This document shows, one piece after another, positions 1 to 50,976 of a stretch of DNA of 64,000 nt. Under the pieces are notes generated by a model that saw only the letters and a list, made by a program, of their open reading frames with translations, had not been told where the DNA came from and made no database searches. Where the stretch lies: positions 4,526,001-4,590,000 of the forward strand of contig NC_086097.1 of NCBI RefSeq assembly GCF_963921235.1. The letters are read 5' to 3'. The position numbers and the translations under genes were made by a program. Source of the stretch: Mobula hypostoma (lineage: Eukaryota). Each line of letters begins with the position of its first letter. Positions within the stretch are counted from its first letter, which is position 1.

Positions 1-83
1 GACATTGGCATTAAACCAACTGTGGTCACTACAGAAGCTTCTGTGCCTTTTTCATCGATGTTCAGCACGGCCTCGTGAACCAC
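1..83 (-). CDS. Clade A serpin last coding exon (partial, runs off window): hinge and reactive centre loop
   Basis: Not in the ORF track. Acceptor tttctctgctcctgtag|GTG, translation VVHEAVLNIDEKGTEASVVTTVGLMPM(S). Contains the EKGTEA hinge, and P1-P1' is Met-Ser by register with alpha-1-antitrypsin. Confidence 0.95.
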   Translation of the reverse strand, partial: MVHEAVLNIDEKGTEASVVTTVGLMPM

Positions 84-260
84 CTACAGGAGCAGAGAAA
101 GCAAGAAATCTGATTAATGAAGTTAACGTTCCTCTCAGCTGCTCAAATGGCGCTTCAGAAACAGGCTTAGTATTGGTTGTTTTGCTGCAGCAGTGTAATG
201 TATAATAAAATAACTCTAAATTATGATGAGAAATATATATAAATTAATGTAAATAAGTAG

Positions 261-790
261 TGTCAGGCCTCCACATGCAAGCTCCTTCCAGTCTCCATCC
301 AGCTAATAGGAGTCACTTGCCACTCATTTCCAATTCATCACCTTATTATTCCTCTCCACGGCCTGAGGCAACCTCGCCATGTCTTTAGCATTTCGTCTGT
401 ATTTTACGAAGCCAAGTTGCAAGCTTGATGCTCAACCCAGCACGGACAGAGGCCATGCAAGGATCCGTCCAGATTCGAACCAGGACCGCTCGCCTTGAAG
501 TCCAGTGCTGATGCCATTACGTCACCGGCCAGCAAACTCATCACCTGCAACTTATTTAAACCCAGCTGCCCCTCACAATCCTTGGTCACTCATGTGAGCC
601 AGCCAGCCAGCGTCAACCAGTTGCTCCTAACGCTCAGTTACCTCATTGCCTGTGTGCTTAGTATCTGTTCTCTCTCTTGTTTTCTGGCACTCATGGCTTG
701 TTTTGCAGCTGGTTATTAAAGTGATTGCTCGCCACTAAATTGCCTCCAATAGTTTGCTTTTGGGTCAAGCCTTCTCTATATTTCCTGACA
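261..790 (+). mobile_element. Solo LTR with 5-bp target site duplication
   Basis: Ends are a perfect 7-bp inverted pair, TGTCAGG...CCTGACA. Flanked by AGTAG at 256-260 and 791-795. ATTAAA at 715-720. Confidence 0.75.
344..534 (-). mobile_element. tRNA-derived SINE nested in the solo LTR
   Basis: Reverse complement begins gctggccggTGACGTAATGGcatcagcactggacttcaaggcgagcggtcctGGTTCGAATCtgg (A and B boxes). Flanked by aattcatcacct (332-343) and aactcatcacct (535-546). Confidence 0.75.
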
Positions 791-856
791 AGTAGTGCAG
801 AAGGACAGCAAAAAGACCTAGCTGTTTTACATTCATGCTAACCCTGAGCATCTCAT

Positions 857-1291
857 TGTCATAGTCATAGTCATACTTTATTGATCCTGGGGGAAATTGG
901 TTTTCGTTACATTTGCACCATAAATAATAACGAGTAATAGAACCATAAATAGTTAAATAGTAATATGTAAATTATACCAGTAAATTACGAAATAAGTCCA
1001 GGACCAGCCTATTGGCTCAGGGTGTCTGACCCTCCAAGGGAGGAGTTGTAAAGTTTGATGGCCACAGGCAGGAATGACTTCCTATGACGCTCAGTGTTGC
1101 ATCTCGGTGGAATGAGTCTCTGGCTGAATGTACTCCTGTGCCCACCCAGTACATTATGTAGTGGATGGGAGACATTGTCCAAGATGGCATGCAACTTGGA
1201 CAGCATCCTCTTTTCAGACACCACCGTCAGAGAGTCCAGTTCCATCCCCACAACATCACTGGCCTTACGAATGAGTTTGTTGATTCTGTTG
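857..1291 (-). mobile_element. Rex1/Babar-type LINE, 3' fragment
   Basis: ORF end RINKLIRKASDVVG...ILDNVSHPLH...RCNTERHRKSFLPVAIKLYN, with a (TATGAC)n-type tail at about 857-875. Confidence 0.75.
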
Positions 1292-1429
1292 GCATTCATC
1301 CAGCAATATACAAACAAGCAATAAATATTGAAGCAATAAACAGTTTTCTCAAAGAGTTCAGTGGGACAGGCAGCATCTGTGGGGGGAAAGGGATGGTCGG
1401 CGTTTTGGGTCAAGATTTTGTATCGGGAC

Positions 1430-2240
1430 TGTGACGGGATCCTGAATTATCCCTGTGAACTGTGCTTTTAAAAGAGAAAGAGAGAGAGATGTGTCCAACA
1501 CAGACACCTTGTTATTAAGAGACAGAGAGGCGAAGACTGCTTAGAGAGGCTGTTATGGTTTCTCTGCAGCATATTTACACTTCTGCCAGGACACTGGCAG
1601 CTTCTAAGTTCTTACAGAGGGAGAAGGGAGGAGCTACTTGATGGACAGTTGGTGTTTAGCACAACAGTATTTAAACCAGCGTAATTGCTTGTTTCACAGG
1701 ACACAGGACACGCAGACGCACAAGGGTGTGCTGAAGTTACCACTATCCTGTTCAAGTGCCCACGAGTGTGGGACTGAGGATCGATTACGAGGTATCTGTC
1801 TGTGTTTGCGACCTTGTGGAGTCTACTAGTGCATCTAACCCTTGCCTGAGTTGGTAGACTATCACTTGAAGACGGTGCTCTTAAGTTGGTCAAGTTTGGC
1901 TAACTTGGAAATTTCGGAGGACAGCGGAAGAATCAACGGCATCAACTTACGTGAACAAAAACAACACTCCTCCCTCTTCATCACTACTCAACTCAATACC
2001 ACTAACTGAACTGAACTTTACTCATCACCGTAACTGTATCCATTTACCCCTAGACTTGAAGAAGCTTGGTTTTCATATATTTCCACACTTATATAATCAT
2101 TGCTAACCTGTTTGAAATATCTGCATTTATATTACTGTATTGTGTAGTTACTAATAAATACCATTAGTTAATAGCAATACTGGACTCCAAAGTGTTTTCT
2201 ATTTCTGCTGGTTCTTTAACCCGTCATGGGGTACATGACA
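1430..2240 (+). mobile_element. Solo LTR (811 bp) with 4-bp target site duplication, probably Gypsy or ERV type
   Basis: TGT...ACA termini, GGAC at 1426-1429 and 2241-2244, AATAAA at 2153-2158, no credible ORF. Confidence 0.75.
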
Positions 2241-2469
2241 GGACAAACTGTCAGAAATACTCAGCAGGTCAGGCCACATCCTCGATAAGGGGAACATCTG
2301 AAGACCCTTCACACTGCTCCAGTTCTCACCATGTGGCCTGACTTGCATTTTCTGTATTCATTCTGGCCACGGAGTTGCACTCTCCAGCAACCTGCTGATC
2401 TTAACCCTAGCCTAATCATAGGACAGTTTATAGTAACCAATTAACCTATTAACTGGGACATTTAGAGCA

Positions 2470-4090
2470 ACTGGGCAAGGTTTAAATGAATATGTCAGAG
2501 GGATGGGAACCAGTATGATAGAGCTGAGGATGAGCCAGGAGGTTTACAAGTAGATGATGGATGTAACATGAATGTAAGGAAGGACAAGTCAGTGATTGAA
2601 GGTTCTGCATTTAAATGCGCGTAGCATTCGGGAAAAGGTGGATGAACTGGTGGTGCAATTAGAGATTGGTCAGTATGACGTTGTGGGCATCACTGAGTCA
2701 CGGCTGAAAGAAGGCTATAGATGGGAGCTTAACATCGAAGGATATACTTTGTATTGAAAGGACAGGAAAGAAGGCATAGGCGGTGGTGTGGCTATGTTGG
2801 TAAGAGATGGAATTTCATCTTTAGAAAGAGGTGACATAGACCATAAGACCATAACCCATTGGAGCAGGATTAATCCATTCAGCCTATTGAATCTGCACTG
2901 CCATTCCGCCATGGCTGATGACAGAACCTACTCAACCCTATACATCTGGCCTTCTCTCCATATCCCTGGATGTCCTGCATTTGGGAAGATGAGGCTGCTT
3001 AACAAGATAAAATCCTATGAAGTTACAGGAAAGATACCGGCATAGATAGAGGAATGGCTGACCGGCAGGAGGCAGTGAGTGGGAATAAAGGGGGCCTTTT
3101 CTGGTTGGCTGCTGGTGACTAGTTGTGTTCCTCAGGGGTCAGTATTGGGACCCCAACTTTTCACATTGTTTGTCATTGCTTTGGAAAATGTAATTGATAT
3201 CTTGGGGCAAGGTTTGCGGATGATATGAAGATAGGGGGAGAAGTAGGTAGTGCTGAGGAAGCAATGTGATTGTGACAGGACTTAGACAAATTGGAAGAAT
3301 GGGCAATAATGTGGCAGATGAAGCACAGTGTTGGGAAATGTATGATATTGCAATTTGATGAAAGGAACAATGTGCGGACTATTATCTAAATAGGGAGAAG
3401 GTTTAAGCATCAGAGGTGCAGAGGGACTTGGGAGTCCTTGTGCAAGACTCCAAGAAGGTTAACTTACAGGTGGAGTCTGTGGTGAAGAAGGCAAGTGCGA
3501 GGGGAATAGAATGGAAGAAAGGAGATAATGCTGAAGCTTTATAAAATGCTACTCAGATCGCACTTGGAGTATTGTCAACAGGTTTGGGCCCCATATCTCA
3601 GAAAGGATGTGTTATCATTGGACAGAGTCCAGAGGAGGTTCATGAGGATGATTCCAGGAATGAAGGGGTTAACATATGAGGAGTGTTTGGCAGCTTTGGG
3701 CCTGTACTCATTGTAATTGAGAAGAATGTGTGGGGATCTCATTGAATCCTAGCAAATGTTGAAAGGACTAGATAGGGTGGGTGTGGAGAGGACGTTTCCT
3801 ATGGTGGGGGTATCCAGAACTAGAAGGCAGAGCCTCAAAACTGAGGGGCAACCTTTTAGAACAGAAGATTTTTTTTTTTAGCCAGAGAGTGGTGAATCTG
3901 TGGAATGCTCTGCCACAGATGGTGATGGAAATCCGTGGGTATACTTAAGGCAGAAGTTGATCATTTCCTGACACAGCGAGAAGGCAGGTGTATGGGATTG
4001 AGTGGAATCCAGGATCAGCCATGATGGAATGGTGGAGAAGACTAGATGGGCTGAATGGCCTGATTCTGCACCTATATCTTCTGGTCTTAT
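2470..4090 (+). mobile_element. Degenerate CR1 LINE fragments
   Basis: Remnants of the endonuclease start and RT C-terminus (LKLYKMLLRSHLEYCQQVWAPYLRKD), plus a CR1 3' end (tggcctgattctgcacctatatctt). Confidence 0.85.
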
Positions 4091-5835
4091 GGCCTTTGGA
4101 CTGTGGGAGGAATGTAGAGCACCTGACAGAAACTCACATACACACAGCAACGTAGGAATGTACAAACCTGCGTACAGATGGTGTCTGAATTGAACCAGAA
4201 TGTGGTTGCCCTGAGCTGTAAAGGCTTCACGCTAACCACTGCACTACCGTGCTCTCTCAATTCAGGTTATCAGTATCAGCAAACTTTTAACTTTCAATAC
4301 ACAAATCTAATTAGCATTTAAAAAGTTTTATTCTTTTGATGCTTACCAAAGCTCAAACTTTTGAATTGTTCACAGATCATACTTCTTTAAGTTCTGAGTT
4401 GGTGGTTTACCAGTCCAAAGTTTGGAATGACTATTGAGCATTTCAATAAAAAATTACCATAAATAAATGTTAAAAATTGACTTTTGGGCAGGGCAGATAG
4501 GAATGGTGCATGCTTTTCAGTAAGGTTTAATGGTGCAGAGTTACTCTGTCAGATGTACAGAATGAACCATTTGCAAGGTTCTTAACACCATGTCAAAGGA
4601 AAGTTCAGGATTATTCCTTCACTGGGACCTCGAATCTTTTCCTGATATTAACTGCTTATTATTTCATGAAGACAAAGGGGATGGTTATGAACTTCAGGAG
4701 AACTCACACCACTCACACCCCCTTTTCATCATCAGCATCGCGGTGGGAACTGTGAGCAGTTTCAAACTCCTGGGAGTGCACATCTCGCACAACCTCTCAT
4801 TCCAGTGGATGGCAGTATTGAGGAACTGATAACACTGGGCCATTTAATACTCATAAACACAAGAGATTCTGCAAATGCTGGAAATCCAGAGCAACGCACG
4901 CAAAACGTTGGTGAAACTCAGCAAGTCAGGCAGCATCTATGGAAATGAACAAGGCAGGACTTGTGAAGGGTCTTGGCCTAACATTTTGACTGTTTGTTCC
5001 TTACCATTAGATACTGCCTAACCTTCTGAGTTCCTCCACCACTTTTCAGCTATATTTACCAGCGTTCAAGGTATAGACCTGTGAGAAACACTGTGGGTGG
5101 ATTTCCTTGGCACAACTCCTTTGTTGGAGCTGACATTCTGAGATCTAAACTAAAGTGTAAAGATACAGGAAAGGAACAATGTAGATCTGAGCTGTTTCTG
5201 GGTGGGGGGGGTGGTGGCGGATACCAAGAATCTTAAAACAGTGCATTCCTTTTCAGTCTCAGTCTTTCCAAGCATCTCACTATTTTTAATAATCTTATGT
5301 CTGCTTTCTTCTCAGTATTTCATCTTAGCGTTGAAAAGTTTTGCCTGTTAAGTTTTCTATGGACATAAGCAACATTAAATGCTGTTGGAGATGCAGCAAC
5401 AACCCAGATTGTACAGTCTGTAGTTTGGTAATGAAATCAAATCAGAACACTTCACCTCTTATTATCATCATAAGACATACAAGCTGAATTAGCACCATCG
5501 AGTCAGCCCTACCATTCGATCAAGGCAATTTTTGCCTCTCAACTCTTTCCTTCTCCCTGTAACCTTTGACATCCTTGCCAATCAAGAACCTGTCAATCTC
5601 TGCTTTAAATATACTAATTCCATGGATTAACCACATTCTGGCTAAAGAAAATTCCCCTGCTCTGTTCCAAAGTGATGCCCCTGTATTTTGAAGCCTTGCC
5701 CTCTGGTCTTGGACATTCCCACTACTGGAAACATCTTTTATACTTAAATTCTAAATACTGTAGTTTTGTCAATATTCAGTCTCTGGACCCATTCCTGACT
5801 CTAGTGATTCTTGAACTACTACGACTAATTTGAGT

Positions 5836-6112
5836 TTATTTATTTAGATACACAGCAGAACAGGCACTTTCAACCCTTCGAGCTTTACCGCCCGCAGTTC
5901 CCCCAATTTAACCCCGGCCTAAGCATGGGACCATTTACAATAACTAATTAACCTACCGACTGGTATGTGCTTGGCCTGTAGGAGGAAACTGGAGCACCTG
6001 GAGGAAACCCAAGTGATCACAGGGAGAAATTCCAGACTCCTTACCGACAGTGGCAGGAACTGGATACGGGTTGCTACTACTGTAAAATGTTGTGCTAATT
6101 ACAACGCTACCC
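5836..6112 (-). mobile_element. V-SINE (HE1-like) copy. Related copies at about 18118-18385, 21222-21482, 28160-28436 and 39770-40012
   Basis: Recurrent core ggaggaaac(c/t)ggagcacctggaggaaaccc, the reverse complement of the V-domain, with shared head and tail in all copies. Confidence 0.7.
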
Positions 6113-6704
6113 TGCTTCTCCATTCTCTTCACCTCCCTCTCCTCCATAGATGCTGCCTGACCTGCTGAACTCTTCCAGTATTTTGTGTGTGTTACTCTAG
6201 ATTTCCAGCATCTGCAGAACCTCTTGTGTTTATGGTTTGTTCCTCTTCTAGAATCTTCGAGAATAGTCCATCCGTTTGAACTGATCTATTCACCTTCAGA
6301 TCTTTCAGCTCTCTAAGCACCACCTGACTACACTCACTTTGGTGCCTGATTCACAAAGTTCTGACATGTTTCTGACATCTTCCACACTAACACAAAATAC
6401 TTATTCATTTCATCTGCCGTTTCTATGTTCCCCATTACTACTTGTGAAGGATCACTCTGCTGTATTTCGGTGTTCACTGTGTGTCTCTTTGGGCAGATGG
6501 TATTAGCTTGCTGCGTACACAGTGGTTAGAATGCACTCTGTATCTGTTGGCTCTTTGAAGTCCCTCCCTTCCTTAATCCCCAGTTGTGGGTGGTGTTTAT
6601 CAGGGAGGAAGACATTATTCCTGTATTGCAAACATAAGAGGTTCTGCACTTCCTGGGAGAGCTCATTCCTCACAACCTCACATTGTCTTAAAACACATCC
6701 TACA

Positions 6705-7230
6705 CAATCTGGAAAGCTCACCAACACCTCTACTCTCAGAGGGGGCTGAGGAGAGCTACACTATACACATTTAATCTCATGTCCTTCTGCAGATGTGCAC
6801 TAGAGAGCTTCCAAACAAGCTGTATCACTGCATGGCATGGCATGGAAGCAGCAATTGTGGTGGACTGGGAGGCTCTACAACAGGCAGTCAAAATGCCCAT
6901 CGCATCACTGGCATCAGCCTACCCACCATCAAGGACACACAGTGTATAGAAAAATGCATTGGAAAAGGGTCAGTAACATCTTAAAGGATCCCACCCACCC
7001 TGCTCATGGACTGCTTGTCGGGAAGAAACTATATAGTATCCACACCAGGACCACCAGACTCAAAAACAGCTACTTTCCCCAAGCAGTAAGGCTGATCAAC
7101 ACCTCTACTCACTAACCCCCCCCCTCTCCACACCCCCAACCACCACTACTTTATCATTTCCTGTCAGACACCTTATGTACAGACACTCCTGTGCCTAGCG
7201 TCACTTTATGGACATACAACCATAAACCTA
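6705..7230 (+). mobile_element. Rex1/Babar-type LINE 3' fragment. Related fragments at about 16550-16720, 29920-30240 and 55780-56010 (-)
   Basis: ILKDPTHPAHGL...IHTRTTRLKNSYFPQAVRLIN is shared among the copies. Confidence 0.75.
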
Positions 7231-7283
7231 TGAACACTATCTTATTGCCCTTTTTTCTATTTTTGCTCTACTTAGTTAATTCA

Positions 7284-10200
7284 TCATCATCATCATCATC
7301 ATCATCAGGTGCCGTGCCCAGTTTGAGTTTTGACTGCCATGGCCCACACACTCCTGTTTCAGGTCAAGTGGATCAATTCATTGGTATTCATTTCCAGTTC
7401 TCTGGCTACTGTCTCCATTATCATTTGTCTTTGTCTTCCTCTTGCTTTCTTCCCTTCAATCTTTCCCATAATTACCGTGCATTCTAACTCCTCTTTCCTA
7501 ATCACATGTCCAATGAAGTTACGTCACCTTCTCATGATCTCATACATTATTTCTCTTTTTGTGTTTGCTCTGTTCATGACATCCTCGTTAGATATTCATT
7601 TCATCCATGATATTCTTTGCATCCTCCTCAAAAACCACATCTCTGCTGCTTCAATTCATTTCCTCATGTTACAAGATATTGTCCAACATTCTGAGCCATA
7701 TAACATAACTGGATAAACATAACATTTCAGTACTCTGAGGTGGGTTGTCATGCCTAATTTAGTATTGGTCAGTATACTCTTCATTCTCGTAAAGGTGTCT
7801 TTTGCCATCCCTATTCTTCTTTTGATGTCCATATCGCACCTGCCATCTGATGTCACCCAGCTTCCTAAGTAGCAAAAGTTCTGTACTTGTTTTATGTCTT
7901 CCCCGTTTATTCTCAGCCTGCAGACAGGATTCTCCTTCTTTTTGGATATCACCATACATTCTATCTTTTTGCAATTGATAGATAGACCATTTATGCACTT
8001 TCTTCAACAATTATATCAATTAGGTTTTGTAGTTCTTCCTCCGTACTTGCAATTAACACAGTGTCATCTGCATATCTGAAATTATTGATGTTTTCACCGC
8101 CAACTTTGATTCCCAAAATGTCTCTTATTTTTTGTAATATTGTTTCACTGTGCACATTAAATAAATCAGGGAAGAAAACACACCCTTGTCTAATGCCTAT
8201 CTTGATTCTCGTAAACTGACTCACTTCTCCATCTATTTTTATAGCGGCAGTTTGTTCCCAGTACAGATTTCTGATTAGGCGGAGGTCTTTGGAATCTAGA
8301 TCTAGAGTTTTCTGTAATATTTCAAATAACTTATTGTGCTTCACTTTATCAAATGCTTTTGTGTAGTCGATAAAACAAATAAACAAATCTTTTTGCACTT
8401 GAATAGCTCATTCTGATAGTATCCTTAACATCAATATTGCGTTTCTTGTACCTTTGTCTTTCACAAAACCTCATTGTTCTTTACCTATAGGCGATAATTT
8501 GTTCTATTACTAGTTCATCAGGACCTGCTGCCTTTCCTTTCTTCATCTTATTTATTGCATTATGAACTTCAGATTTAAAAATACTTGGACCTTCTATGTT
8601 TTTCTTAATTTCTGGTTTTTCGCCTCGATTGTCTTCAAACAATTCCTGAATATACTCAGTCCATCTGTTCATAATCTCATCTTTTTCCATGATAATGGTA
8701 CTGTCCTTTGCTTTCAAACATCCACCTGAAGAACAGAGGAGCTTTTTACCAGTGATATTCTTGATTTGTTGATTTAACCCTTTTGGATCAGTAATAGGGA
8801 TTCTTTCTATTTGCTCACATTCCTGGTTTAACCATTCTTCTTTGGCTTTTTGACATAAGTTTTTAACTTTTTTATCTAAGGACTTATATTCTATAGGATT
8901 TGCTTTCTTCCGTCTTCTTTCTTCTATTAGATTTTTGATTTCATCTGTCATCCATTTATTCTTTGTGCTTTTTTCTTTTTTAGGAATCACTGACTTTGCC
9001 GATTCTACCAAGGTATCCTTTAGAGAGTTAAATTTCATTTCTACGTGATTGCTATCATCTTCAACAGATTCTATTTCTAGAATTTGAAATCTATTCTTTA
9101 CTTCAATTGTAAATTTTTGTCAAGTTTTCTTCTTTAAGAGATTGTTCAGGTTTTTACTTCTTTAGTTTTTTAAGTTTTACTTTTACATGACATATTACTG
9201 GGTTATGGTCACTATTACAGTTTGCACCTGGATATGTTTTGCATTCAGTCACTGAGTTTATAGTAATAAAGTCAATTTGATTTCTAGTGTTATCACCTGG
9301 ACTTTTCCAGGTCCACAAGCGTCTTGGGTGGTTTTTAAAGTAGGTATTCATAATGACCTGATTATTCATCTTGCACTATTCTACCCATTTCTCACCTCTT
9401 TCATTTCTTTCCCCTAGTCCAAATTTTCCTACGGTATCTCCATCAGCACCTTGTCCTCCTAGATCTCCCATGACAATAACAGTATCTTGAGATTTGCATC
9501 CATTCTTTGCTTGTTCAAGCTCTTCATAGAATTTATCTATATCCTCATTTGTTCCATCTGTTGTTGGTGCATATACCTGTATAATTGCTAAATCGAATGG
9601 TTGTCCTCTGAATCTAACAAGGAGCACTCTTTCTGATATTGCCCAATATCCTAAAACACTTTTTGCCATGTTTTCATCCATAAGAATTCCACTCCATTAG
9701 TATGGGATGTTCCACAAGAATAGATTAGTGTCTTATTTCTACTCTGGCATGTTCCAGCACCTATCCAACGAACTTCGCTAATTCCCATGATGTTAATCTT
9801 TAGTCTTTCCATTTCATTTATCACATTGTCCAATCTTCCTGCTTGATATAGGGTTCTTACATTCCAAGTGGCAATAATTTTCTTTTGTGTTACTTGAATT
9901 TTATGAGCAATAGCTTGATGATGGTCGGGGATCCCCTGCTGACCAGAATCAACCCTACCGAGTGAAGCATCTTCAGAATTGTCTTGAAGATCTCTTGACA
10001 CTGTTGTTGTGTGATACATTTTGTGAGTTTGACCATGGTTTTCTGAGCAAATAGATTCTAGGAAACCTAGTAACCAGCAACCGTGGTTTGCTGTTGCCTA
10101 CCATTGGTCGAACTAAAGAAATCGCTATTTCTCTTCCCAAATGTTCATCCGCCTGTACTATAGCCGTTGACATTTGAGGTCCTAGCTCATCCACCTTCTC

Positions 10201-10409
10201 CATCATAAGTTCAGTTACTGAACCTGCCAGATCTGCCATTGGCCTTTGCTCATATCCTGAGCAGGAACCCTTGCAGGTGCTGCTGTTCCAAGCCAGAGCG
10301 CCCTGGGAGCAATGAATGACTAAGGGGTAACTCCACTTTCCCCAAAGCTCTGGAAGTCCCCAATCAGAGCCTCATCACCGGTTGCAATTTAGAGTCATAC
10401 GTAGGATGT
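7284..10409 (-). mobile_element. Near full-length RTE-clade LINE (APE endonuclease + RT), frameshifted
   Basis: IATWNVRTLYQAG..GISEVRW, IIQVYAPT, VMGD, SDH, FIDYTKAFDKV, GIRQGC, FRYADD and LYGSECWT. (CAT)n tail at 7282-7307. Near-duplicated flanks ttagttaattca (7272-7283) and ttatttaattca (10410-10421). Confidence 0.92.
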
Positions 10410-10427
10410 TTATTTAATTCACCTTTT

Positions 10428-10430
<3 letters not shown>

Positions 10431-10474
<44 letters not shown>
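10431..10474. repeat. (AT)n microsatellite
   Basis: Read directly from the sequence. Confidence 0.97.
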
Positions 10475-10480
<6 letters not shown>

Positions 10481-10585
10481 GTCATTTATATTTTAATTAT
10501 TATGCATTACAATGTACAGCTGCTGCATAACAACAAATTTCTCAATATATGCCAGTGATTTAAAACTGATTCTGATACAATCAGT

Positions 10586-10614
10586 CTATATGTGTGTGTG
10601 TATGTGTGTGCGTA

Positions 10615-10667
<53 letters not shown>

Positions 10668-10703
10668 ATATATATATTATATACACACACACATACACAC
10701 ACA
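10586..10703. repeat. Compound (TG)n/(TA)n/(CA)n microsatellite
   Basis: Read directly from the sequence. Confidence 0.95.
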
Positions 10704-10736
10704 CTATCTTATGTATTTATATTTATTGTGTTTTTA

Positions 10737-11460
10737 TGTAACACCCTCATGCAAGACGATCCTTTTTTTTTAACATAGTTATGCTGTTGGGCATTTTTTT
10801 TTGAAGATCACCTCAAAATGCAAATCTATATAAAAAGAAGTATTCCTTTAATTACATTATACAATAGAGTATTTCAGTTTTGCTGTTTAAGATAAATTTT
10901 CCAGTTGATTAATAAGTTAGGCTTGTTGAATTAGCCAATAGGATTTGTCTTGTTAACATTTCAGCCAATAAGATGCCCCAGAGAAAAAAGCAGTAATGGG
11001 TAGCCATTCTGGAGAGAGCTTGGGAGTAAAGAAGTTTCAAGAAAGATGGAGAAAGATGGGGAAGAGAAACGGACAATGAACATAAATGCTCAGAGAAATA
11101 AATTTGGAAGGACAGATACAGATGTCAGAAAATCCTCATGTAGACTATGGTTTTCTGGAGAATGTGCAGATAACTTACAGTCAGCTAACTAGCACATGAC
11201 CTTGGAGAGAGGGCAAGAGGAGACAGATATTTATTTTTCTATTTTTAACTTGGTCGGGTTCTTCAGCGCAGAACCGTTTTGGCACTGTGAGTAAGGAAAG
11301 TGTAGCAACTGGATTGATTAAGCAGCAATGAGCTCCAAAGATTATGTGCACGCTATAGACTGACATCTATGTAATGGGCCCTTTTCTTTATTTTGTTTGA
11401 TGTAGTTTAAAATATTTTCCCAATACAATTTCAATTCAAGTTTACATTGGTGTGAGTTAA
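10737..11460 (+). mobile_element. Probable LTR fragment, related to 48853-49525 (-)
   Basis: Starts TGTAAC. Shares blocks (agttatgctgt, agccaat, gagctccaa..ttatgtgca, tgtaatgggcccttt) in the same order with the reverse complement of 48853-49525. Confidence 0.5.
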
Positions 11461-11471
11461 ACTCTTTACTT

Positions 11472-12642
11472 CCTGCACAATACAGGCCCTTTGGCCCACA
11501 AAGTTGTGCCGAACATGTCCCTACCTTAGAAATTACTAGGCTTACCCATAGCCCTCTATTTATCTAAGCTCCATGTACCTATCCAAAAGTCTCTTAAAAG
11601 ACCCTATCGTATCCACCTCCACCACGGTTGCCAGCAGCCCATTCCACGCACTCATCACTCTCTGCTTAGAAAACTTACCCCGACATCTCCTCTGTACCTG
11701 CTCCCAAGCACCTTAAAACTGTGCCCTCGTGTGGCAACCATTTCAGCCCTGGGAAAAAGCCTCTGACTATCCACATGATCAATGCCTCTCATCATCTTAT
11801 ACGCCTCTATCAGGTCACCTCTCATCCTCCGCCGCTCCAAGGAGAAAAGGCCGAGTTCAATCAATCTGTTTTCATAAGGCATGCTCCCCAATCCAGGCAA
11901 CATCCTTGTAAGTCTCCTCTGCACCCTTTCTATGGTTTCCACATCCTTCCTGTAGTGAGGCGACCAGAACTGAGCACAGTACTCCAAGTGGGGTCTGACC
12001 AGGGTCCTATATAGCTGCAACATTACCTCTCAGCTCCTAAATTCAATTCCACGATTGATGAAGGCCAATACACCGTACGCCTTCTTAACCACAGAGTCAA
12101 ACTGCACAGCTGCTTTGAGCGTCCTATGGACTCAGACCCCAAGATCCCTCTGATCCTCCACACTGCCAAGAATCTTACCATTAATATTATATTCTGCCAT
12201 CATATTTGATCTACCAAAATGAACCACTTCACAATTATCTGGGTTGAAAACCATTTGCCACTTCTCAGCCCAGTTTTGCATCCTATCAATATCCGGCTGT
12301 AACCTCTGACAGCCCTCCACACTATCCACAACACCTCCAACCTCTGTGTCATCAGAATTCCTCTACTTGCTCATCCAGGTCATTTATAAAAATCACGAAG
12401 CGTAAGGGTGCCAGGACAGATCCCTGAGGCACCGAGCTCCATGCAGAATATGACCCATCTACAACCACTCTTTGCCTTCTGTGGGCACCCAGTTCTGGAT
12501 CCACAAAGCAATGGATCCCATGGATCCCTTGGATCCCATGCCTCCTTACTTTCTCAATAAGCCTTGCATGGGGTACTTTATCCACTGCCTTGCTGAAATC
12601 CATATACACTACATCTACTGTTCTTCCTTCATCAATGTGTTT
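11472..12642 (-). mobile_element. CR1 LINE 3' part, same subfamily as 44460-47127
   Basis: DVVYMDFSKAVDKVPH, VPQGSVL, LQLYRTLVRPHLEYCAQFWSPHYRKD, and a shared 3' UTR (ctagtaatttctaaggtagggacatg). Confidence 0.9.
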
Positions 12643-12759
12643 AGTGTTTATTATTGTGTTCTTTATCTTATTGTGTTTTTTTTTGCTTCTTTGGATCTGG
12701 AGTAACAATGATTTCATTCTCCTTTTCACTTGTGTACTGGAAATGATATTAAACAATCT

Positions 12760-13308
12760 TGGATCACTGCATCACAGTCTGGTATGGAGGGGATCCTACA
12801 CAGGACCAAAAGAAGCTGCAGAATGTTGTAAATCTAGTCAGCTCCACCTTGGGTACTAGCCTACAAAGTACCCAGGACATCTTTAGGAAGTGGTGTCTCA
12901 GAAAGGCAGCGTCCATTATTAAGGACCCCCAACACCCAGGGCATGCCCTTTTCTCACTGTTACCATCAGGTAGGAGATACAGAAGCCTGAAGGCACACAC
13001 TCAGTGATTCAGGAACAGCTTCTTCCCCTCTGCCATCCAATTCCTAAATGGACAGTGAAGCTTTGGACACTACCTCACTTTTTTTAATATACAGTATTTC
13101 TGTTTTTGCACATTTTTAAAATAATCTATTCAATATACATAACTGATTTACTTGTTTATTTATTATGTTTTATTTTATTTATTATTAGTATTTATTTTTT
13201 CTCTCTCTCTCTCTCTGCTAGATTATGTATTGCATTGAACTGCTGCTGCTGCTAAGTTAACAAATTTCACGTCACATGCTGGTGATAATAAACCTGATTC
13301 TGATTCTG
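12760..13308 (+). mobile_element. Rex1/Babar-type LINE 3' fragment
   Basis: CITVWYG...KLQNVVN...KAASIIKDPQHPGHALFSLLPSGRRYRSL, tail aataaacctgattctgattctg. Confidence 0.8.
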
Positions 13309-13966
13309 CATCTTGAACCTTGTCTGAGCTCACGGGTTGCAATGCTGCCCTCTGCAAGTGGGTTTGTGGTAGCTATAACATTTAGCAATTGCTCTTTCAA
13401 TTGACTCTGGGTGATGCAAAGTGAAGTATTACATCACATGTTCTCCAGAATGAAAGCTTGCCAAAAAGGACAAAAAGACATAACTTCACAAATTTCCTGG
13501 CATATGTCCATGTTAATGAACACAAGAGATTCTGCAGATGCTGGAAATCCAGAGCAGCACAGAAAAAATGCTGAAGGAACTCAGCAGGTCAGGCAACATC
13601 TATGGAAATGAATAAACAGTTGGACGTTTTGGGCCAAGACCCTTCTCCAGGACTGGAAAGAAGTGAGAGAAGATACAAAATAAAGAAGATGGGGAAGAGG
13701 AAGGGATGCATGCTAAATGCTGATAGGTGAAGCCAAGTGGGTTGGGAACGGAGATGGAGCGAGAAGCTGGGTGATGTAGGGTGGAAAAGGTGAAGGGCTG
13801 GAGAGGAAGGGATCTGAGGAGAGGAGAGTCACCATGGGAGGAAAGGAAGGAGGAAGGGCAAAGGGGGGTGGTGATAGGTGGAAAAGGTAAAGGGCTGAAG
13901 AAGGAAAAAAGCTCACAACACGCTGGAGGAACTCAGCAGGTCGGGCAGCATCCGTGGAAAAGATTG

Positions 13967-14002
13967 GTCGACGTTTCGGGCCGGAACCCTTCGTCAGGAC
14001 TG
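13967..14002 (-). ncRNA. Minimal type I hammerhead ribozyme motif, sense to the serpin pre-mRNA
   Basis: Minus strand reads caGTC-CTGACGA-A-GGGttccggCCC-GAAA-C-GTC^GAC: intact core boxes, helix II, helix I GTC/GAC and a loop-less helix III. Confidence 0.7.
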
Positions 14003-15445
14003 AAGAGGGAGGGGGCAGAGGCCCTATAAAGAAGGTGGGGGGAGGGTGGGAAGGAGAAGGCTGGTAGGTTCCAGGTGAAAAACCAGTAAGGGGAAAGATA
14101 AAGGGGTGGGGGAGGGGAGGCAGGGAGGGGATAGGCAGGAAAGGTGAAGAAGGAATAGGGGAAAACACAATGGGTAGTAGAAGGAGGCAGAACCATGAGG
14201 GAGGTGATAGGCAGCTGGGGGAGGGGGCACAGTGACATAGGGATAGAGGAGGGAGGGGGAGGGAATTACCGGAAGTTAGAGAATTCTATGTTCATACCAA
14301 GGGGCTGGAGACTACCTAGACAGTATATGAGGTGTTGCTCCTCCAACCTGAGTTTAGCCTCATCATGGCAGTAGAGGAGGCCATATATGGACATATCTGA
14401 ATGGGAGTGGGAAGCTGAGTTGAAGTGGGTGGCTACTGGGAGATCCTGACTGTTGTGGTGGATGGAGTGGAGGTGCTTGACGAAGCGGTCCCCCAATCTG
14501 CATCGGGTTTCACCGATGTAGAGGAGGCCGCACCGGGAGCACCAGATGCAATAGATGATCCCAACAGACTCACAAGTGAAGTGTTGCCTCACTTGGAAGG
14601 ACTGTTTGGGGTCCTGAATGGTGGCAAGAGAGGAGGTGTAGGGACAGGTGTAGCACTTACGCTTACAGGGATAAGTGCCAGGTGGGAGATTCGTGGGGAG
14701 GGACGTGTGGACCAGGGAATTGCGGAGAGGGGTGGAGAGGGAAAGATGTGCTTAGTGGTGGGGTCCTGTTGAAGGTGGCAGAAGTTGCGGAGGATAATGT
14801 GCTGGATCCGGAGGCTGGTGGGGTGGTAGGTGAGGATAAGGGGAACTCTGTCCCTGTTGTGGTGGCGGGAGGATGGGGTGAGGGCCGAAGTGCGGGAAAC
14901 GGAGGAGATGCGGCTGAGGGCATTATTGATGACGGCAGAAAGGAAACCACGATCCTTAAAGAAAGAGGACATTTGAGATGTCCTGGAACGGAAAACCTCA
15001 TCCTCAGAGCAGATGCGGCAGAGATGGAGGAAATGGGAATAGGGAATGGCATTTTTGCATGTGGCAGGGTGGGAAGAGGTATAGTTGAGAGGACTCAGGT
15101 TGGAGGAGCAACACCTCATATACCGTCTAGGTAGTCTCCAGCCCCTTGGTATGAACATTGAATTCTCCAACTTCCGGTAATTCCCTCCCCTTCCCTTCCC
15201 TTATCCCTATGTCACTCTGCCCCCTCCCCCAGCTGCCTATCACCTCCCTCATGGTTCCGCCTCCTTCTACTACCCATTGTGTTTTCCCCTATTCCTTCTT
15301 CACCTTTCCTGCCTATCACCTCCCTGCCTCCCCTCCCCCACCCCTTTATCTTTCCCCTTACTGGTTTTTCACCTGGAACCTACCAGCCTTCTCCTTCCCA
15401 CCCTCCCCCCACCTTCTTTATAGGGCCTCTGCCCCTTCCCTCTAC

Positions 15446-15480
15446 AGTCCTGACGAAGGATTCCGGCCCGAAACGTCAAC
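15446..15480 (+). ncRNA. Hammerhead motif in the inverted pLTR arm (helices partly mutated)
   Basis: agtc-CTGACGA-a-ggattccggccc-GAAA-c-GTC-aac: core intact, with mismatches in helices I and II. Confidence 0.5.
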
Positions 15481-15809
15481 CGATCTTTTCCATGGATGCT
15501 GCCCGACCTGCTGAGTTCCTCCAGCGTGTTGTGAGTGTTGCTTTGACCCCAGCATCTGCAGGTTATTTTGTGTTTTGTGTTTACGATTTTGTGAAGAAAA
15601 AAATCTGCCAGGAGAGGAGAGTCAGCATGGTAAAAAGGGAAGGAGGGGCATTGGGGGGGGGTGATAGGCAGGTGAGGAGAAGAAGTAGGACAGAGTGGGG
15701 AAGAGGGAAGGGGGAGAGGGACAATATAGTAATAATCACTATAATATTACTAAATATTTGGGTGGTGGAGGGGAGATAGGTTTTTACCAAAGAAGATGTA
15801 AGGTGCTTC

Positions 15810-16135
15810 CTCCTTCTGCTACCCTGCAGGTCACCCTTGTGCAAGGTGTAGCACCTGATTAGCCCCCTGATCAGGGCCATGTGAAGTCATGGGGGCAGGT
15901 GGTGGATGGTCGCATGGGCAGATGGTGCATATCACAAGTCCTGGTTATGCGACCACTGTCTCCAGCATGATAATCTCAGAAGAGTATTGATAATGATTGG
16001 GGTCACTTGTCTTGTAAAGACACTGCCCAGAAGAAGGCAATGACAAGCCACTGCTGTCGAAGAACTTGCCAGGAACAATCATGGCCATGGAAAGACCATT
16101 ATCACCCATGTCATATGACATGGCACATAATGAAT
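15810..16135 (+). mobile_element. Non-autonomous retroelement with an RTE-like 3' end
   Basis: Ends ...gccatgg...atggcacataatga, resembling the 3' end of the RTE in this window (gccatgg...acggcacctgatgatg). Confidence 0.4.
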
Positions 16136-16298
16136 TAAATGAATTTGCATATAGTGACCAGTGATAATAAACCTGATTCTGACAATTATACCGATCCCAA
16201 CTAAAACTTCCCAAAGTTTTGTCCAGCGTTTCACGATCTTTTGTCAAGATAAAAATTGATTGTACAGCGTATTTCTGTTGAACATAGAAGTATCTTAC

Positions 16299-16446
16299 CT
16301 TTGACAATTTTAGTTGTGTAGATTTAGTTATTTTGGAGAGGTTTGCATTTTTAGTGAACAGGTCGGTGATACCCATTGCCATCAGTATATGTTTGAGTTG
16401 GTAGGAAGACTTGAGCAACAACTTTGGAAGGCGTAGATCCACAGAC
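16299..16446 (-). CDS. Clade A serpin exon 4 (148 nt)
   Basis: Acceptor tttacaatag|G, translation (G)SVDLRLPKLLLKSSYQLKHILMAMGITDLFTKNANLSKITKSTQLKLSK, donor AAG|gtaaga, phase 0. Confidence 0.96.
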
Positions 16447-17879
16447 CTATTGTAAACAGGGTCAAGAATATATTAGTTCTATTGTTTCCTTAGGTTTTTC
16501 ATTTTACTGAGCCACTCCCACCGGGGCGGGGGGGGGGGAGGGGAAGCTATGTAGTATCCACGCCAGGACCACTAGACTCAAAAACAGTTACTTTTCCCAA
16601 GCAGTAAAGCTGATCAACACCTCCACCCACTATCCCACCCCTCTAAACCCCCAATCACCACTACTTTATTATTTCCTGTCAGTCACCTTATGTACAAACA
16701 CTCCTGTGCCCAGTGTCACTTTCTTTACACTTGAGTACTGGAAATGACTTGAATCCTGAATCTTGTAATCTCTATGTATAATTGAAAAACACTTCCAGAC
16801 TTCATCCGTTGACTTCACAATATATAAGTCAAGTCAAGTTGCTTTTTATTGTCATTTTGACCATAAGCTGCTGGTACAGTACACAGTAAAAACGAAACAA
16901 AGTTCCTCCAGGACCCTGGTGCTACATGAAACAACACAAAGCTACACTCGACTAAGTGAGACAACACAAAAATTACACTAGACTACAGACCTACACAGGA
17001 CTACATAAAGTGCACAAAACAGTGCAGGGCAGTACAGTAAATAATAAACAAGACAATAGGCACAATAGAGGACAAATTACAATATAATAATAAATGATGT
17101 GCATGTCAGTCTTTTGTACTTACTTTGGTACTTCACCAGAAAACCAACGTTTCTGCAAATCTTTTCAATAGAAATTTACAGCCTTCTTCATGACAGTGAG
17201 TATTACATAAATTTGTGAGGGGTATAGTTAGGGTAAACGCAAATACACCTTTTCCATTGAGGTTGGGTGAGACTAGAACTAGTCATGAGTTAAGGGTGAA
17301 AGGCAAAATATTTAAAGGAAACATGGGGGGAAACTTCTTCATTCAGAGGGTGATGAGAGTGTGGAATGAGCTGCCGGCGGAAGTGGTAGATATGGGTTCA
17401 ATTTCAACGTTTAAGAGAAATGTGGATAGGTGCAAATTTTGTGTGGTTTGCTTTGGAATTATGTTATGTCCATGCTGACTGTGAATATACTTATTCTCCA
17501 GCAGGGGTCACTGATGAGCACAGTCTACTTGACTATTAAAATATTATTCAAATTAACCAAAGAAATGGTTTAAATCTAAAATTGTAGCTTAGCATGGAAA
17601 GATTTCTAAATATTTTTCTTACCGTGAATATATGCTTTTAAGTTCAGCAAACTATTGACATATATTTCTTCCATCCTTAAAATTAAGTTTGATTTTTACA
17701 TATGTAATGAAGATTATTATGAAATGAATAAATATAATTTAATTGGAGTGTTTTACTCTGATTGGTTGATTGTTGTTTCCAACCAAAACATTCCTGCACA
17801 GGCTTTGCAAAGGGTTATATTGAGCCATGTATATTATTTCTGAGTAGAATTTTCTGAAAGACACAGTGCACATGTACGG

Positions 17880-29345: not shown

Positions 29346-29477
29346 TCAATGTAAGGGCTTATAAAATGAGGGTAGTAAATTTAACCCAAGGCATTTTCTC
29401 CATTCTCATAACTATCTGCCACATATCATCTCTGCAAAGCAGAACATAGCCTATTTTTGTTGTTGCAGTTGACTCAC

Positions 29478-29748
29478 CCAATCCGTAATGTATTTATTAG
29501 TGTCTGAAAACTGGTAATGGTTAGATTCTGTTCAACGCCTGCCAGTTTTCCTGGGTCCGGTAGTATTAGTACCAAGGAAGCATTTCCTTTATATGGAACC
29601 AAGATCACGGAACTGGAGAGCTTTTCATCATAATTCATTGCATATCTTCCCTTGCACTTCATCATTTGAACTTTAACTGTTGTGGTATCATCCACATGAA
29701 AATCAGCTTCGTGAGTGTTCACGGGATCAAAAGGCTTCACCCATTTAC
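29478..29748 (-). CDS. Clade A serpin exon 3 (271 nt)
   Basis: Acceptor atttccctacag|GT completes the Gly codon, giving GKWVKPFDPVNTHEADFHVDDTTTVKVQMM...VPYKGNASLVLILPDPGKL. Donor ATTGG|gtgagt, phase 2. Frame is continuous with exons 2 and 4. Confidence 0.96.
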
Positions 29749-30714
29749 CTGTAGGGAAATAGACACAGATATTAAAACACTGACCTCATCTCAAAACTTA
29801 AGGACCTTTCGTCACAAGTTGTTTTCAAATCCCACCAACTCCCCCCATGCTCTGACACGTCTTTCACCTCCTCCTGCCCCACACTCCAGGAAAATCAACA
29901 AATGCAGTTTTGTTTTTTGCTGCACATCACTGCCACCAGCCTACCTGTCATCGAGGACGTATATACAGAAAAGTGCTGGAAAAGAGCAGTAACATCATGA
30001 AGGGTCCCACCCACCCTGCTCATGGACTGCTTGTCCCAGTCCCATTAAGGAGGAGGCTACATAGCGTCCATACCAGGACCACCCGACTCAAAAACAGTTA
30101 CTTTCCCCAAGCTGTAATGCTGATCAACCCCTCTACCCACTAACCCACCCACCCTCCACACGCCCAGCTACCACCACTTTATCATTTCCTGTCAGAATCA
30201 CCACACGTATTGACACTCCTGTGCTGAGCATTGCTTCATGGTCACACACCAGTTTATCGTCCAAGAGGACCACAATCTTGTAGGGTTTGGAGGCTTGTGT
30301 GTCCCAATGACTCAGAGAGCTCTGTTGCTGGAGTCAGGGCTCCTGGTAGGGTCAGCCATGCCAAACAGGTCAAAGAGTAGTGGTGGTATATACTGAATGC
30401 AGAGTACTGCAGCAGTCATGTCATAGTCATCGTGGCAATGTAGAGCACAGAACTGGAGACTCAAGGGACTGCAGATACTGGACCCGAAACAACATCAAGG
30501 AACTCAGCAGTTCAGGCAGCATCTGTGGACGGAAATAGACACTCGACATTTTGGGTTGAGACTCTTCCGAAAGAAGATGGCGTGAGCCACATCCTGGCCC
30601 ATTGCGCTGCAGGAATATAGGGCAGCAATGAAGATCCACCATCCCTGTCTGTATAGGATTCTTCATTGCTGTTTCTATAACAATTTTGTTTCACCAGTCA
30701 GGGTTGTTAGCCCT

Positions 30715-50940: not shown

Positions 50941-50976
50941 AGTCCTGACGAAGGGTCTCGGCCTGAAACGTCGACT
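50941..50976 (+). ncRNA. Hammerhead motif in a short Penelope-derived repeat
   Basis: AGTC-CTGACGA-A-gggtctcggcct-GAAA-C-GTC^GACT: core intact, with a G-U pair at the base of helix II. Confidence 0.6.

Follow-up and report, generated by a model that had tools for sequence, protein, structure and literature searches.

The near-perfect inverted repeat and the hammerhead motif in the last intron of a serpin gene very probably go back to one composite, now dead insertion of an endonuclease-bearing Penelope-like element (PLE). Head-to-head hammerhead remains of an abundant PLE are an ordinary structure of an already known kind. Two 5'-truncated cDNA copies would lie head to head with their 3' ends outward, a 1181-nt copy sense to the serpin and an antisense copy of 442 nt with a ~38-nt tail. 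The features of the locus are collected in Table 1; positions refer to the window, the whole stretch of 64,000 nt of Mobula hypostoma DNA that was analysed.

Table 1. Features of the serpin intron and of the PLE copies within it (positions in the window)
Feature	Position	Strand	Basis or remark
Start of last serpin exon	1..83	-	reactive-centre loop and C-terminus extend past the window start
Last serpin intron, 16,213 nt, holding the PLE	84..16296	-	GT 16296-16295, AG 85-84
Older PLE 3'-end fragment	13517..13694	-	blastn to 10 other copies, 72-79%
Sense PLE copy, 5'-truncated, frameshifted, 1181 nt	13912..15092	-	same orientation as serpin; 3' end at 13912
Left arm, last 442 nt of the sense PLE copy	13912..14353	-	repeat search, alignment
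Minimal hammerhead motif, intact core, sense to serpin	13967..14000	-	letter-by-letter reading
ORF remnant with GIY-YIG endonuclease domain	14266..14751	-	C-terminus extends into left arm
Upstream ORF piece, region preceding the endonuclease, other frame	14589..15092	-	ORF list
Inverted 5'-truncated PLE 3'-end copy	15093..15573	+	arm 15093-15535 and one-sided tail 15536 to ~15573
Hammerhead motif of the inverted copy, antisense to serpin	15447..15480	+	core kept, two changes
Serpin coding exon directly upstream of the intron	16297..16447	-	Pfam E 3.4e-12, Serpin profile positions 258-309

The first-pass annotation had placed the structure in serpin intron 4, about 760 nt below an exon donor. 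The location in a serpin intron was confirmed, whereas the number was a guess: four coding exons were seen, and the host intron is the last. The upstream exon ends at 16297, and from the GT at 16296-16295 the outer repeat end at 15535 lies 761 nt downstream, in agreement with the annotated distance. RNA contigs came from the runs X1, X2, X3 and X19 (4 of the 24 listed; the kind of run was guessed). Contigs of X1-X3 stop at both ends of exon 16297-16447, and their extra letters match window 56-81 and 29479-29505, so that contigs of X1 (both sides), X2 and X3 join this exon to its neighbours. The reading frame is preserved across the exon join (K followed by VVHEAVLNI), and the minus-strand translation of L011 1340-1528 gives VVHEAVLNIDEKGTEASVVTTVGLMPMSRAPLLKFNRPFLLLIADHNTKNVLFAGRVINPTV, the last serpin exon. 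A regular expression for the serpin C-terminal motif revealed no last exon in the window; the exon straddles the window start and was located via the contig letters. Splicing removes the intron, and serpin mRNA is produced even with the PLE in place. Both arms of the inverted repeat lie inside the intron 16296-84 defined by the spliced contigs, which places two inverted copies in one transcript, the arrangement of ADAR-edited pairs.

Global alignment of the full arms (13912-14353 and 15093-15535) showed 96.4% complementarity, bearing out the claim of a near-perfect inverted repeat of ~440 bp. The arms differ in 16 of 444 columns (nine transitions, four transversions and three indel columns). 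A repeat search split them into two blocks, one of 342 nt at 96% (13912-14253/15194-15535) and one of 109 nt at 94% (14245-14353/15093-15201). The identity between the arms (96.4%) compares with 95.9% and 96.4% between the arms and the unrelated copy L036. Because the arms are no closer to each other than to unrelated copies, nothing suggests that their complementarity has been maintained, and for the same reason an origin of both arms in one event is not provable by identity; what speaks for it is solely that they abut exactly and that the architecture recurs at other loci. The arms hold the end of a retroelement ORF and its 3' UTR, which led us to reject a DNA transposon or a foldback element as their source.

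Read from 5' to 3', the sense copy consists of the GIY-YIG ORF remnant, a 3' UTR, the hammerhead motif and a conserved 3' terminal domain, a layout that recurs among other genomic copies. These match the locus at 74-77% over 15085-14240 and at 77-82% over 14001-13929, and copies of the same subfamily match it at 94-96%. The GIY-YIG domain (Pfam PF01541, E 6.4e-05; 23.6 bits, cutoff 22.6) is the endonuclease of EN+ PLEs, and transposon-derived segments in protein models from rays share 84-85% identity with the ORF remnant. Since the C-terminus of this ORF extends into the left arm, the arm is the PLE's own 3' end. The ORFs 14589-15200 (-) and 14266-14751 (-) of the ORF list overlap in separate frames; the sense copy is frameshifted, because the piece preceding the endonuclease and the endonuclease itself are in different frames. 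A Pfam profile search found no family in the upstream piece, and PF26215 and PF28514, precomputed for ray relatives, were absent from the Pfam scan of proteins P0003, P0006 and P0011. The sense copy at the locus is without a reverse transcriptase (RT) domain; a longer relative (L013) carries an RVT_1-like ORF upstream on the same strand, scoring 27.7 bits, below the Pfam cutoff of 29.6.

The inverted 442-nt copy abuts the sense copy exactly at 15092/15093, which gives the terminal repeat of adjacent copies found in EN+ PLEs. Its tail (~38 nt) is confined to the right-hand copy. Homology to copy L004 reaches 15573 at 93.9%, and the extension recurs in further genomic copies; EN+ PLE units have a tail of this kind, 30-40 bp long, at one end. 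At the outer ends of the structure no target-site duplication was recognised by eye. A 37-nt direct repeat (13817-13853/15610-15646, 86%), whose halves are separated from the inverted repeat by 59 and 75 nt, is unexplained; its right half starts 37 nt past the tail end at ~15573. The older PLE fragment lies 220 nt away and holds a decayed hammerhead motif at 13623-13650 (CUGGAGA and CAAAAC; scan with 4 mismatches), 347 nt downstream on the same strand. Blastn of the right flank (15574-16296) against the sampled copies gave no match; nesting of the young unit inside one older PLE copy is not demonstrable, the left fragment alone being established.

Letter-by-letter reading of the minus strand confirmed the annotated sense-strand hammerhead at 14000-13967, namely GUC (14000-13998), CUGACGA (13997-13991), A (13990), GGG-UUCCGG-CCC (13989-13978), GAAA (13977-13974), CG (13973-13972), UC (13971-13970) and GAC (13969-13967), with the nominal cleavage site, assigned by sequence, between 13970 and 13969. 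The invariant core (C3 U4 G5 A6 N7 G8 A9, G12 A13 A14, A15.1-U16.1 and H17) is present in CUGACGA, GAAA, U13971 and C13970. Features of minimal PLE hammerheads (min-HHR) were also found. An unpaired A13990 follows A9 and a G10.1-C11.1 pair closes helix II (GGG(U)...(G)CCC, 13989-13978), both common to all 19 listed motif copies bar point changes; the motif is without a helix III hairpin, and the palindrome A-C-G-U at 13974-13971 (positions 15.2-16.2) could permit an intermolecular helix III in a dimer. All four extra features named in PMC4209133 are present, which agrees with the annotation of a Penelope-type terminal region bearing a dimer-dependent minimal hammerhead. In the experiments described there, a single minimal PLE hammerhead showed no cleavage and dimers showed low cleavage in vitro (PMC4209133). 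Helix I of the locus copy has 3 bp (GUC/GAC) followed by an A/C mismatch, shorter than the 4-5 bp reported for minimal PLE hammerheads; in a copy of the major subfamily (window 45712-45767) it has 5 bp. The right-arm motif carries GGA for GGG in helix II and GUC^A for GUC^G at position 1.1. The Rfam/Infernal check that the first-pass annotation had suggested was negative: hammerhead models gave 0 matches at the gathering score in the 64 kb and 0 at E<=10 in 13000-16500 (3.5 kb) and 13930-14030 (101 nt). This result, the 3-bp helix I, the RT match below cutoff and the lack of a recognised target-site duplication are points against the PLE reading.

A search of the host genome with a strict motif pattern revealed 7441+7549 = 14,990 copies against 0+0 for the reversed control, so the motif is not a chance match. 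Within 3 mismatches, 152,588 copies were found (0 in the control), and the subfamily of the locus comprises 876 copies (control 0). An inverted head-to-head partner lies within 1.5 kb at 15 of 30 sampled subfamily loci, the study locus included, and 13 of the 15 partners reach at least 85% identity. Tail-to-tail matches were seen at three of the 30 loci, all weak and at most 52 nt long. Among the first 100 strict places, close pairs were oriented (-,+) in four cases, direct in one and (+,-) in none. At 5 of the 30 sampled loci the head-to-head junction falls within a few nt of the motif 5' edge. A further sense copy (34180-34207) occupies another of the serpin's introns; it has a mutated core (CUAACGA), and the motif scan detected no inverted partner motif for it.

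The composite insertion can be outlined as follows. We infer that both strands of the cut target would prime reverse transcription on PLE RNA 3' ends, a step backed by in vitro work in which the protein of a lizard PLE cut both target strands and extended them (PMC11167929). Active elements are believed to use the hammerhead motif, acting as a dimer, for the processing of multimeric PLE transcripts. The sense motif at the locus is a single monomer that lacks helix III, and by itself it is predicted to be inactive.

Thermodynamic folds, which ignore tertiary contacts, proteins and kinetics, gave an inactive hairpin as the minimum-energy fold of the monomer (-11.3 kcal/mol, z 0.10; 102 of 200 shuffles fold equally well) and likewise of the major-subfamily copy. 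Because N7 is C, GACG can pair with CGUC in this hairpin. For the dimer, the double-hammerhead conformation is predicted at -13.5 kcal/mol against a minimum of -27.7. These folds would suit a motif whose main role is that of a structured 3' hairpin for recognition or stalling (GACG with CGUC around a GGGU/GCCC stem) rather than that of a ribozyme that cleaves; in functional terms, the resemblance to a hammerhead would then be ancestral or incidental. We consider this rather unlikely. The absence of any Rfam hammerhead match favours it, as do the junctions near the motif 5' edge at 5 of 30 loci and likewise at L003 and window 53306, as if cDNA synthesis had stopped just beyond the hairpin. Moreover, a lizard PLE inserts in vitro without need of hammerhead cleavage, and none of its RNA-seq reads ended at the site (PMC11167929). 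Yet all invariant core positions, the nucleotide after A9, G10.1-C11.1 and the ACGU palindrome are kept across diverged subfamilies, features for which Cervera & De la Pena (PMC4209133) argue a non-random origin, and dimeric constructs of such motifs cleave weakly in vitro according to the same source. Because the compared copies are mostly dead, the conservation of the motif reflects master copies and not selection at each locus.

The arms could also be two independent, abutting insertions of the same young subfamily, one PLE having entered in or beside another. An arm-to-arm identity no higher than that to unrelated copies is what such an origin would leave, PLEs do enter PLE sequence, as the older fragment 13517-13694 nearby illustrates, homing to an element's own pLTR is described in PMC11167929, and a target-site duplication is not seen. 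However, the two copies meet without a gap at 15092/15093, their 3' ends facing away from each other, and the tail is at a single end, as described for single insertion units in PMC8557442. Head-to-head pairs are also favoured over tail-to-tail pairs (15 against 3 weak ones at the 30 loci, and 4 against 0 among the strict places); random nesting is disfavoured, because it would not yield so strong a head-to-head bias. Independent insertions are therefore improbable, and a single composite insertion is the preferred origin of the arms.

In the serpin pre-mRNA, the motif from this insertion is predicted to be buried in a duplex of ~433 bp with the antisense arm. The fold of the pre-mRNA segment contains 433 inter-arm pairs and covers every nucleotide of 14000-13967, in line with the first-pass proposal that the nascent pre-mRNA could form a long dsRNA stem masking the ribozyme; that the antisense arm is transcribed first was borne out. 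The duplex would be a by-product of the PLE insertion mode and not a device of the host gene, and it may attract ADAR or other dsRNA-binding proteins as any intronic inverted repeat may. For the claim that it is a likely ADAR substrate there is a precedent at class level, Penelope being described as a massively hyper-edited lizard element (PMC5625713). The RNA contigs cannot reveal editing: arm differences seen in them are shared by X19 and are consistent with other copies of the repeat. No starts or ends at 13970/13969 were listed in the contigs, and no contig across the hammerhead was assignable to the locus; the ~150,000 near-copies of the motif make it difficult to assign RNA ends to a locus with contigs. 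Two loose ends in X19, at 13964 and 13969, were rejected as cleavage products, as they fit the point of subfamily divergence.

A far-reaching version of these ideas would have the 433-bp hairpin silence the hammerhead in serpin-expressing tissue, become hyper-edited by ADAR and alter serpin output, and would make head-to-head PLEs (about half of the copies of a family in the tens of thousands) the main source of long intronic dsRNA genome-wide, with the ribozyme systematically masked. We regard this as distinctly improbable.

The first-pass annotation went further and saw in the antisense arm a built-in lock, which keeps an active hammerhead from cutting the serpin pre-mRNA and, with ADAR editing, lets the host tolerate or tune the insertion. 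The predicted duplex would bury the motif fully, the transcript carries the antisense arm upstream of the sense arm, splicing and mRNA production go on with the insertion present, and Penelope elements are heavily hyper-edited in a lizard (PMC5625713). Against this, 14 of the 29 other sampled copies have the same pairing, whatever their surroundings, and the arms are without extra similarity. For the sense copy at 34180-34207, in another serpin intron, the motif scan turned up no inverted partner; its core, however, is mutated. Judging from the predicted folds and from the single motifs described in PMC4209133, cleavage by one minimal hammerhead on its own is not to be expected. No lock is needed, because the lone motif is without helix III, is predicted to form an inactive hairpin and published single motifs stayed uncleaved. 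A lock serving or tuning the host gene is unsupported and highly improbable, the partner being a default product of PLE insertion.

A hammerhead beside its own antisense copy in a gene looks designed; to recognise it here as simply the leftovers of a PLE insertion prevents over-reading. The locus and its relatives also provide a local picture of one PLE family, with its 3'-end layout, one-sided tail, head-to-head frequency and recurrent junction at the motif. Where a genome is rich in units of this type, potential intronic dsRNA hairpins are very numerous, an abundance that is relevant to RNA-editing calls and to dsRNA sensing in cartilaginous fishes.

In twin priming of L1 elements, a second priming on the other target strand produces an inverted segment joined to a 5'-truncated copy. 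There the inverted piece is internal and non-overlapping, whereas the pieces at the serpin locus both start at the PLE 3' end and, for this reason, duplicate each other. Intronic pairs edited by ADAR, such as primate inverted Alu elements and lizard Penelope (Porath et al. 2017, PMC5625713), likewise comprise two inverted copies in one pre-mRNA, with a long near-perfect duplex predicted here. Those pairs are described as independent neighbours, whereas the copies at the locus would arise as one insertion, and editing here is a predicted possibility.

The min-HHR of metazoan PLEs (Cervera & De la Pena 2014, PMC4209133) are described with the same core boxes CUGANGA, GAAA and UH, the same extra unpaired nucleotide after A9 and G10.1-C11.1 closing pair, and the same absence of a real helix III, the ACGU palindrome being able to pair between two copies. 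They share the place near the 3' end of a GIY-YIG-encoding retroelement, the massive copy number and the occurrence in opposite-strand pairs a few hundred bases apart (PMC4209133). The locus copy differs in its helix I of 3 bp, where 4-5 bp are reported, and in having C at N7. Compared with the canonical EN+ PLE units described by Craig et al. 2021 (PMC8557442), the locus is without a full-length ORF and without a direct tandem pLTR; truncation affects both copies, and the longer also has a frameshift. The resemblance lies in the inverted 5'-truncated copy at the 5' end of a 5'-truncated copy, the flanking inverted repeats with the hammerhead within the repeated terminal region, and the one-sided tail, 30-40 bp in those units and ~38 bp at one end here. 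An adjacent inverted partner of this kind is typical of PLE integration (Craig et al. 2021, PMC8557442).

The near-perfect inverted repeat of the first-pass annotation was confirmed: two segments given by a repeat search together make up a single pair of 442-nt arms separated by a 739-nt spacer. In a global alignment of the arms 16 of 444 columns differ, 3 of them through indels and the rest through 9 transitions and 4 transversions. The motif in the left arm (13912-14353) reads on the minus strand at 14000-13967 as it had been spelled, GUC CUGACGA A GGGUUCCGGCCC GAAA CG UC^GAC. In the motif of the right arm (15093-15535) helix II is weakened by GGA replacing GGG, and A replaces G at the first nucleotide 3' of the cleavage site.

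An ORF at 14266-14751 (minus strand) spans part of the spacer and the inner left arm and matches the Pfam GIY-YIG endonuclease (23.6 bits, E 6.4e-05), barely exceeding the curated cutoff of 22.6. As the final residues of this ORF fall within the left arm, this arm is the 3' terminus of a retroelement copy truncated at its 5' end, and as a second ORF piece upstream (14589-15200) lies in a different frame, the copy is frameshifted. The same last 442 nt recur in inverted orientation as a second copy, the right arm. Other genomic copies are likewise arranged as ORF, UTR, motif and terminal domain; between diverged subfamilies the ORF can be aligned, as can the motif together with the terminal region, but not the intervening UTR. 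In a longer relative (L013) a reverse-transcriptase-like ORF precedes it on the same strand (27.7 bits, under the Pfam cutoff of 29.6). Penelope-like elements (PLEs) are defined by the combination of a retroelement GIY-YIG endonuclease, a terminal-region hammerhead motif and complex inverted insertions (PMC8557442; PMC4209133). The database proteins closest to the endonuclease ORF (84-85% identity) come from ray gene models whose names are unrelated and which evidently contain transposon-derived segments. Public ray models named as host proteins (P0001, P0002, P0012, P0014, P0015), among them a protein kinase domain protein, mucin-2 and ABHD14A and LAMP3 isoforms, carry 70-88% identical PLE-endonuclease segments; judged by these alignments, transposon sequence seems to be built into predicted isoforms of ray host genes.

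Scanning 126 and 134 minus-strand ORFs with Pfam detected three Serpin matches and none beyond these. Contigs of three sequencing runs (X1, X2 and X3) match the serpin exon up to 16297 and 16447. The X1 contigs have extra letters on both sides of the exon, corresponding to 56-81 and 29479-29505, and the X2 and X3 contigs also extend past the exon (16297-16447). Since the contigs continue across the exon ends into the neighbours, all three runs contain spliced serpin mRNA. Splice signals and reading frame place the host intron from 16296 down to 84 (16,213 nt); the last exon, which runs on past the window start, codes for a normal serpin C-terminus. The element edge at 15535 lies 761 nt downstream of the donor, as annotated (about 760 nt), and the label "intron 4" depends on a putative non-coding first exon. 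Two contigs with exact matches, one from X2 that crosses the donor and one from X1 that covers 13591-13895, demonstrate the presence of some unspliced RNA (or DNA).

Coordinates of serpin and PLE features in the window
Feature	Position	Strand	Remarks
Serpin ORF	40031-40792	-	Pfam Serpin profile 2-165
Serpin ORF	29477-29785	-	Pfam Serpin profile 160-254
Serpin ORF	15948-16472	-	Pfam Serpin profile 258-309
Inverted-repeat segment, outer	13912-14253/15194-15535		342 nt, 96%; repeat search
Inverted-repeat segment, inner	14245-14353/15093-15201		109 nt, 94%; repeat search
PLE copy	15092->13912	-	endonuclease C-terminus, ~265 nt UTR, hammerhead motif, 58-nt conserved terminal domain
Right-arm hammerhead motif	15447-15480	+	two changes relative to left-arm motif
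Older PLE 3' end	13517-13694	-	decayed motif; 220 nt from young unit, same strand
Decayed motif	13623-13650	-	CUGGAGA, CAAAAC
Mutated motif	34180-34207	-	CUAACGA; first long serpin intron

The young unit may have inserted into or next to the older PLE sequence. Its purine-rich flanks share repeats (13817-13853 / 15610-15646 at 86%; 13753-13804 / 13850-13901 at 75%). Other retroelement remnants in serpin introns lie at 7994-8407, 12355-12771 and 36390-36566 (all minus strand), with two ORFs matching RVT_1 (E 6.7e-16 and 5.2e-11) and one matching the ALKBH8_N family (E 1.1e-07). Two 99-nt PLE 3'-end pieces with hammerhead motifs (45713-45811 and 50933-51031; 95% identity) are directly repeated at a distance of 5220 nt, and the long plus-strand ORFs between them (46123-47127, 47667-48200) are LINE reverse transcriptase-like by eye; either a LINE has inserted, with a long duplication, into a PLE tail, or the unit is chimeric.

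All four hammerhead features stressed by Cervera & De la Pena are present in the window motif: the core boxes, the extra nucleotide between A9 and G10.1, the G10.1-C11.1 pair and the palindromic 15.2-16.2 (ACGU). Helix I has 3 bp, compared with 5 in the major subfamily. A search with Rfam hammerhead models gave no match at any threshold tried, so membership in these families was not borne out; this is understandable because the motif has no helix III hairpin. The best predicted fold of the lone 56-nt RNA (13955-14010, minus strand) is a hairpin formed by the core GACG and the CGUC that surrounds the cleavage site (-11.3 kcal/mol, z 0.10; 102 of 200 shuffles fold equally well), and a hammerhead-like fold with helices I and II only is 4 kcal/mol costlier. 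This pairing is possible because N7 is C in the core, as seen in the window's PLE family at 13955-14010 (minus) and 45712-45767 (plus). On its own, the motif is predicted to adopt a closed hairpin as its ground state, with both core and cleavage site hidden. For the dimer, the double-hammerhead conformation reaches -13.5 kcal/mol versus a minimum of -27.7 kcal/mol. Published cleavage tests agree in spirit with these inactive predicted folds: cleavage was undetectable for a single minimal PLE hammerhead and low for dimers (PMC4209133), a lizard PLE inserted without need for hammerhead cleavage and had no RNA-seq reads ending at the site (PMC11167929), and only one of nine Xenopus retrozyme dimers cleaved in vitro (bioRxiv 10.64898/2026.07.22.740005). 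A motif scan of the transcript found two other serpin-sense copies only, the decayed and the mutated motif; both are core-dead, so there is no competent hammerhead partner in cis. The same scan found no inverted partner of the mutated motif.

The antisense arm had further been proposed to act as a built-in lock on the hammerhead through which the host gene could tolerate the insertion or be tuned by it. The physical half of this proposal, a duplex masking the motif, is reasonable on the modelled folds: a 1824-nt pre-mRNA stretch is predicted to form 433 inter-arm base pairs that cover the whole motif, every nucleotide of 14000-13967 being paired to 15447-15480, and the predicted duplex energy of the two arms alone is -947 kcal/mol. 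ADAR classically acts on long inverted repeats in introns. In lizard, Penelope is the one long element that is massively hyper-edited (PMC5625713). The functional half has no support, however, as masking is superfluous for silencing a monomeric minimal hammerhead, the arm pairing is not specially conserved and inverted pairing is generic across the sampled PLE copies.

The arms are 96.4% alike, and an unrelated copy (locus L036) shows 95.9% identity to the left and 96.4% to the right arm; 14 of 41 other loci gave full or near-full arm matches at about 94-96%. By sequence, the arms are thus not special to each other, with no sign of complementarity being maintained, and their similarities fit the expansion of one young subfamily in a burst, with neutral decay thereafter. 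Because they are equally close to unrelated copies, a single event is not provable from identity alone; what points to a single integration event is that the copies abut exactly at 15092/15093 with their 3' ends outward, and that orientation is strongly biased. A lizard PLE protein was found to cleave and extend both target strands in vitro, unlike R2 or L1 (PMC11167929), and cleavage and extension of both strands would give rise to the head-to-head architecture.

In the 3.48-Gb host assembly the strict motif pattern has 7441+7549 occurrences, the motif 28-mer within 3 mismatches 76,217+76,371 and the subfamily-specific pattern 439+437 (control 0 in each case); the window holds 7 copies within 6 mismatches. 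Pairing was surveyed in 3-kb loci at the first 30 hits to the subfamily-specific pattern, window locus included, using further copies of the 155-nt terminal region. Head-to-head inverted partners, upstream or overlapping, were detected at 15 of the 30 loci (13 of them with at least 85% identity) in a survey that misses partners more than 1.5 kb away, the window's own partner sitting right at that limit. Short weak tail-to-tail matches only (at most 52 nt) were found at 3 loci, direct matches, mostly 73-78%, at 6, and no further terminal-region copy at 12. Close pairs among the first 100 strict-pattern places comprised four (-,+), one direct and no (+,-), and a motif scan of the first 10 loci (9 places) revealed an inverted partner motif at three; a fourth has an inverted ORF piece. 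Since inverted partners recur across the sampled loci, head-to-head pairing is the ordinary state of this PLE, regardless of host gene.

At five of the 30 loci (L021, L022, L030, L035, L039) inverted copies are joined within a few nt of the motif's 5' edge, and two further copies (locus L003, 1475-1528, and window 53277-53333) have a junction near this edge, resulting in short palindromic "fold-back" units. Rather than coinciding with the nominal cleavage site, the junction comes immediately after the GACG/CGUC hairpin, as though this were where cDNA synthesis or template switching stopped.

The young unit is an ordinary, dead, head-to-head PLE insertion carrying the minimal hammerhead motif of its family, and such insertions are of a kind already described. 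Beyond the repeat, the right copy alone carries a tail (15536 to ~15573), which is not present after the left arm; it is common to other copies, with locus L004 aligning through 15573 at 93.9% and several further compared copies carrying it. As described by Craig et al. (PMC8557442), PLE units have a tail of 30-40 bp, in many cases at just one end, and an inverted 5'-truncated copy adjoining the 5' end creates inverted repeats around the unit. With the units described there, the one-sided tail and the adjoining inverted 5'-truncated copy agree exactly.
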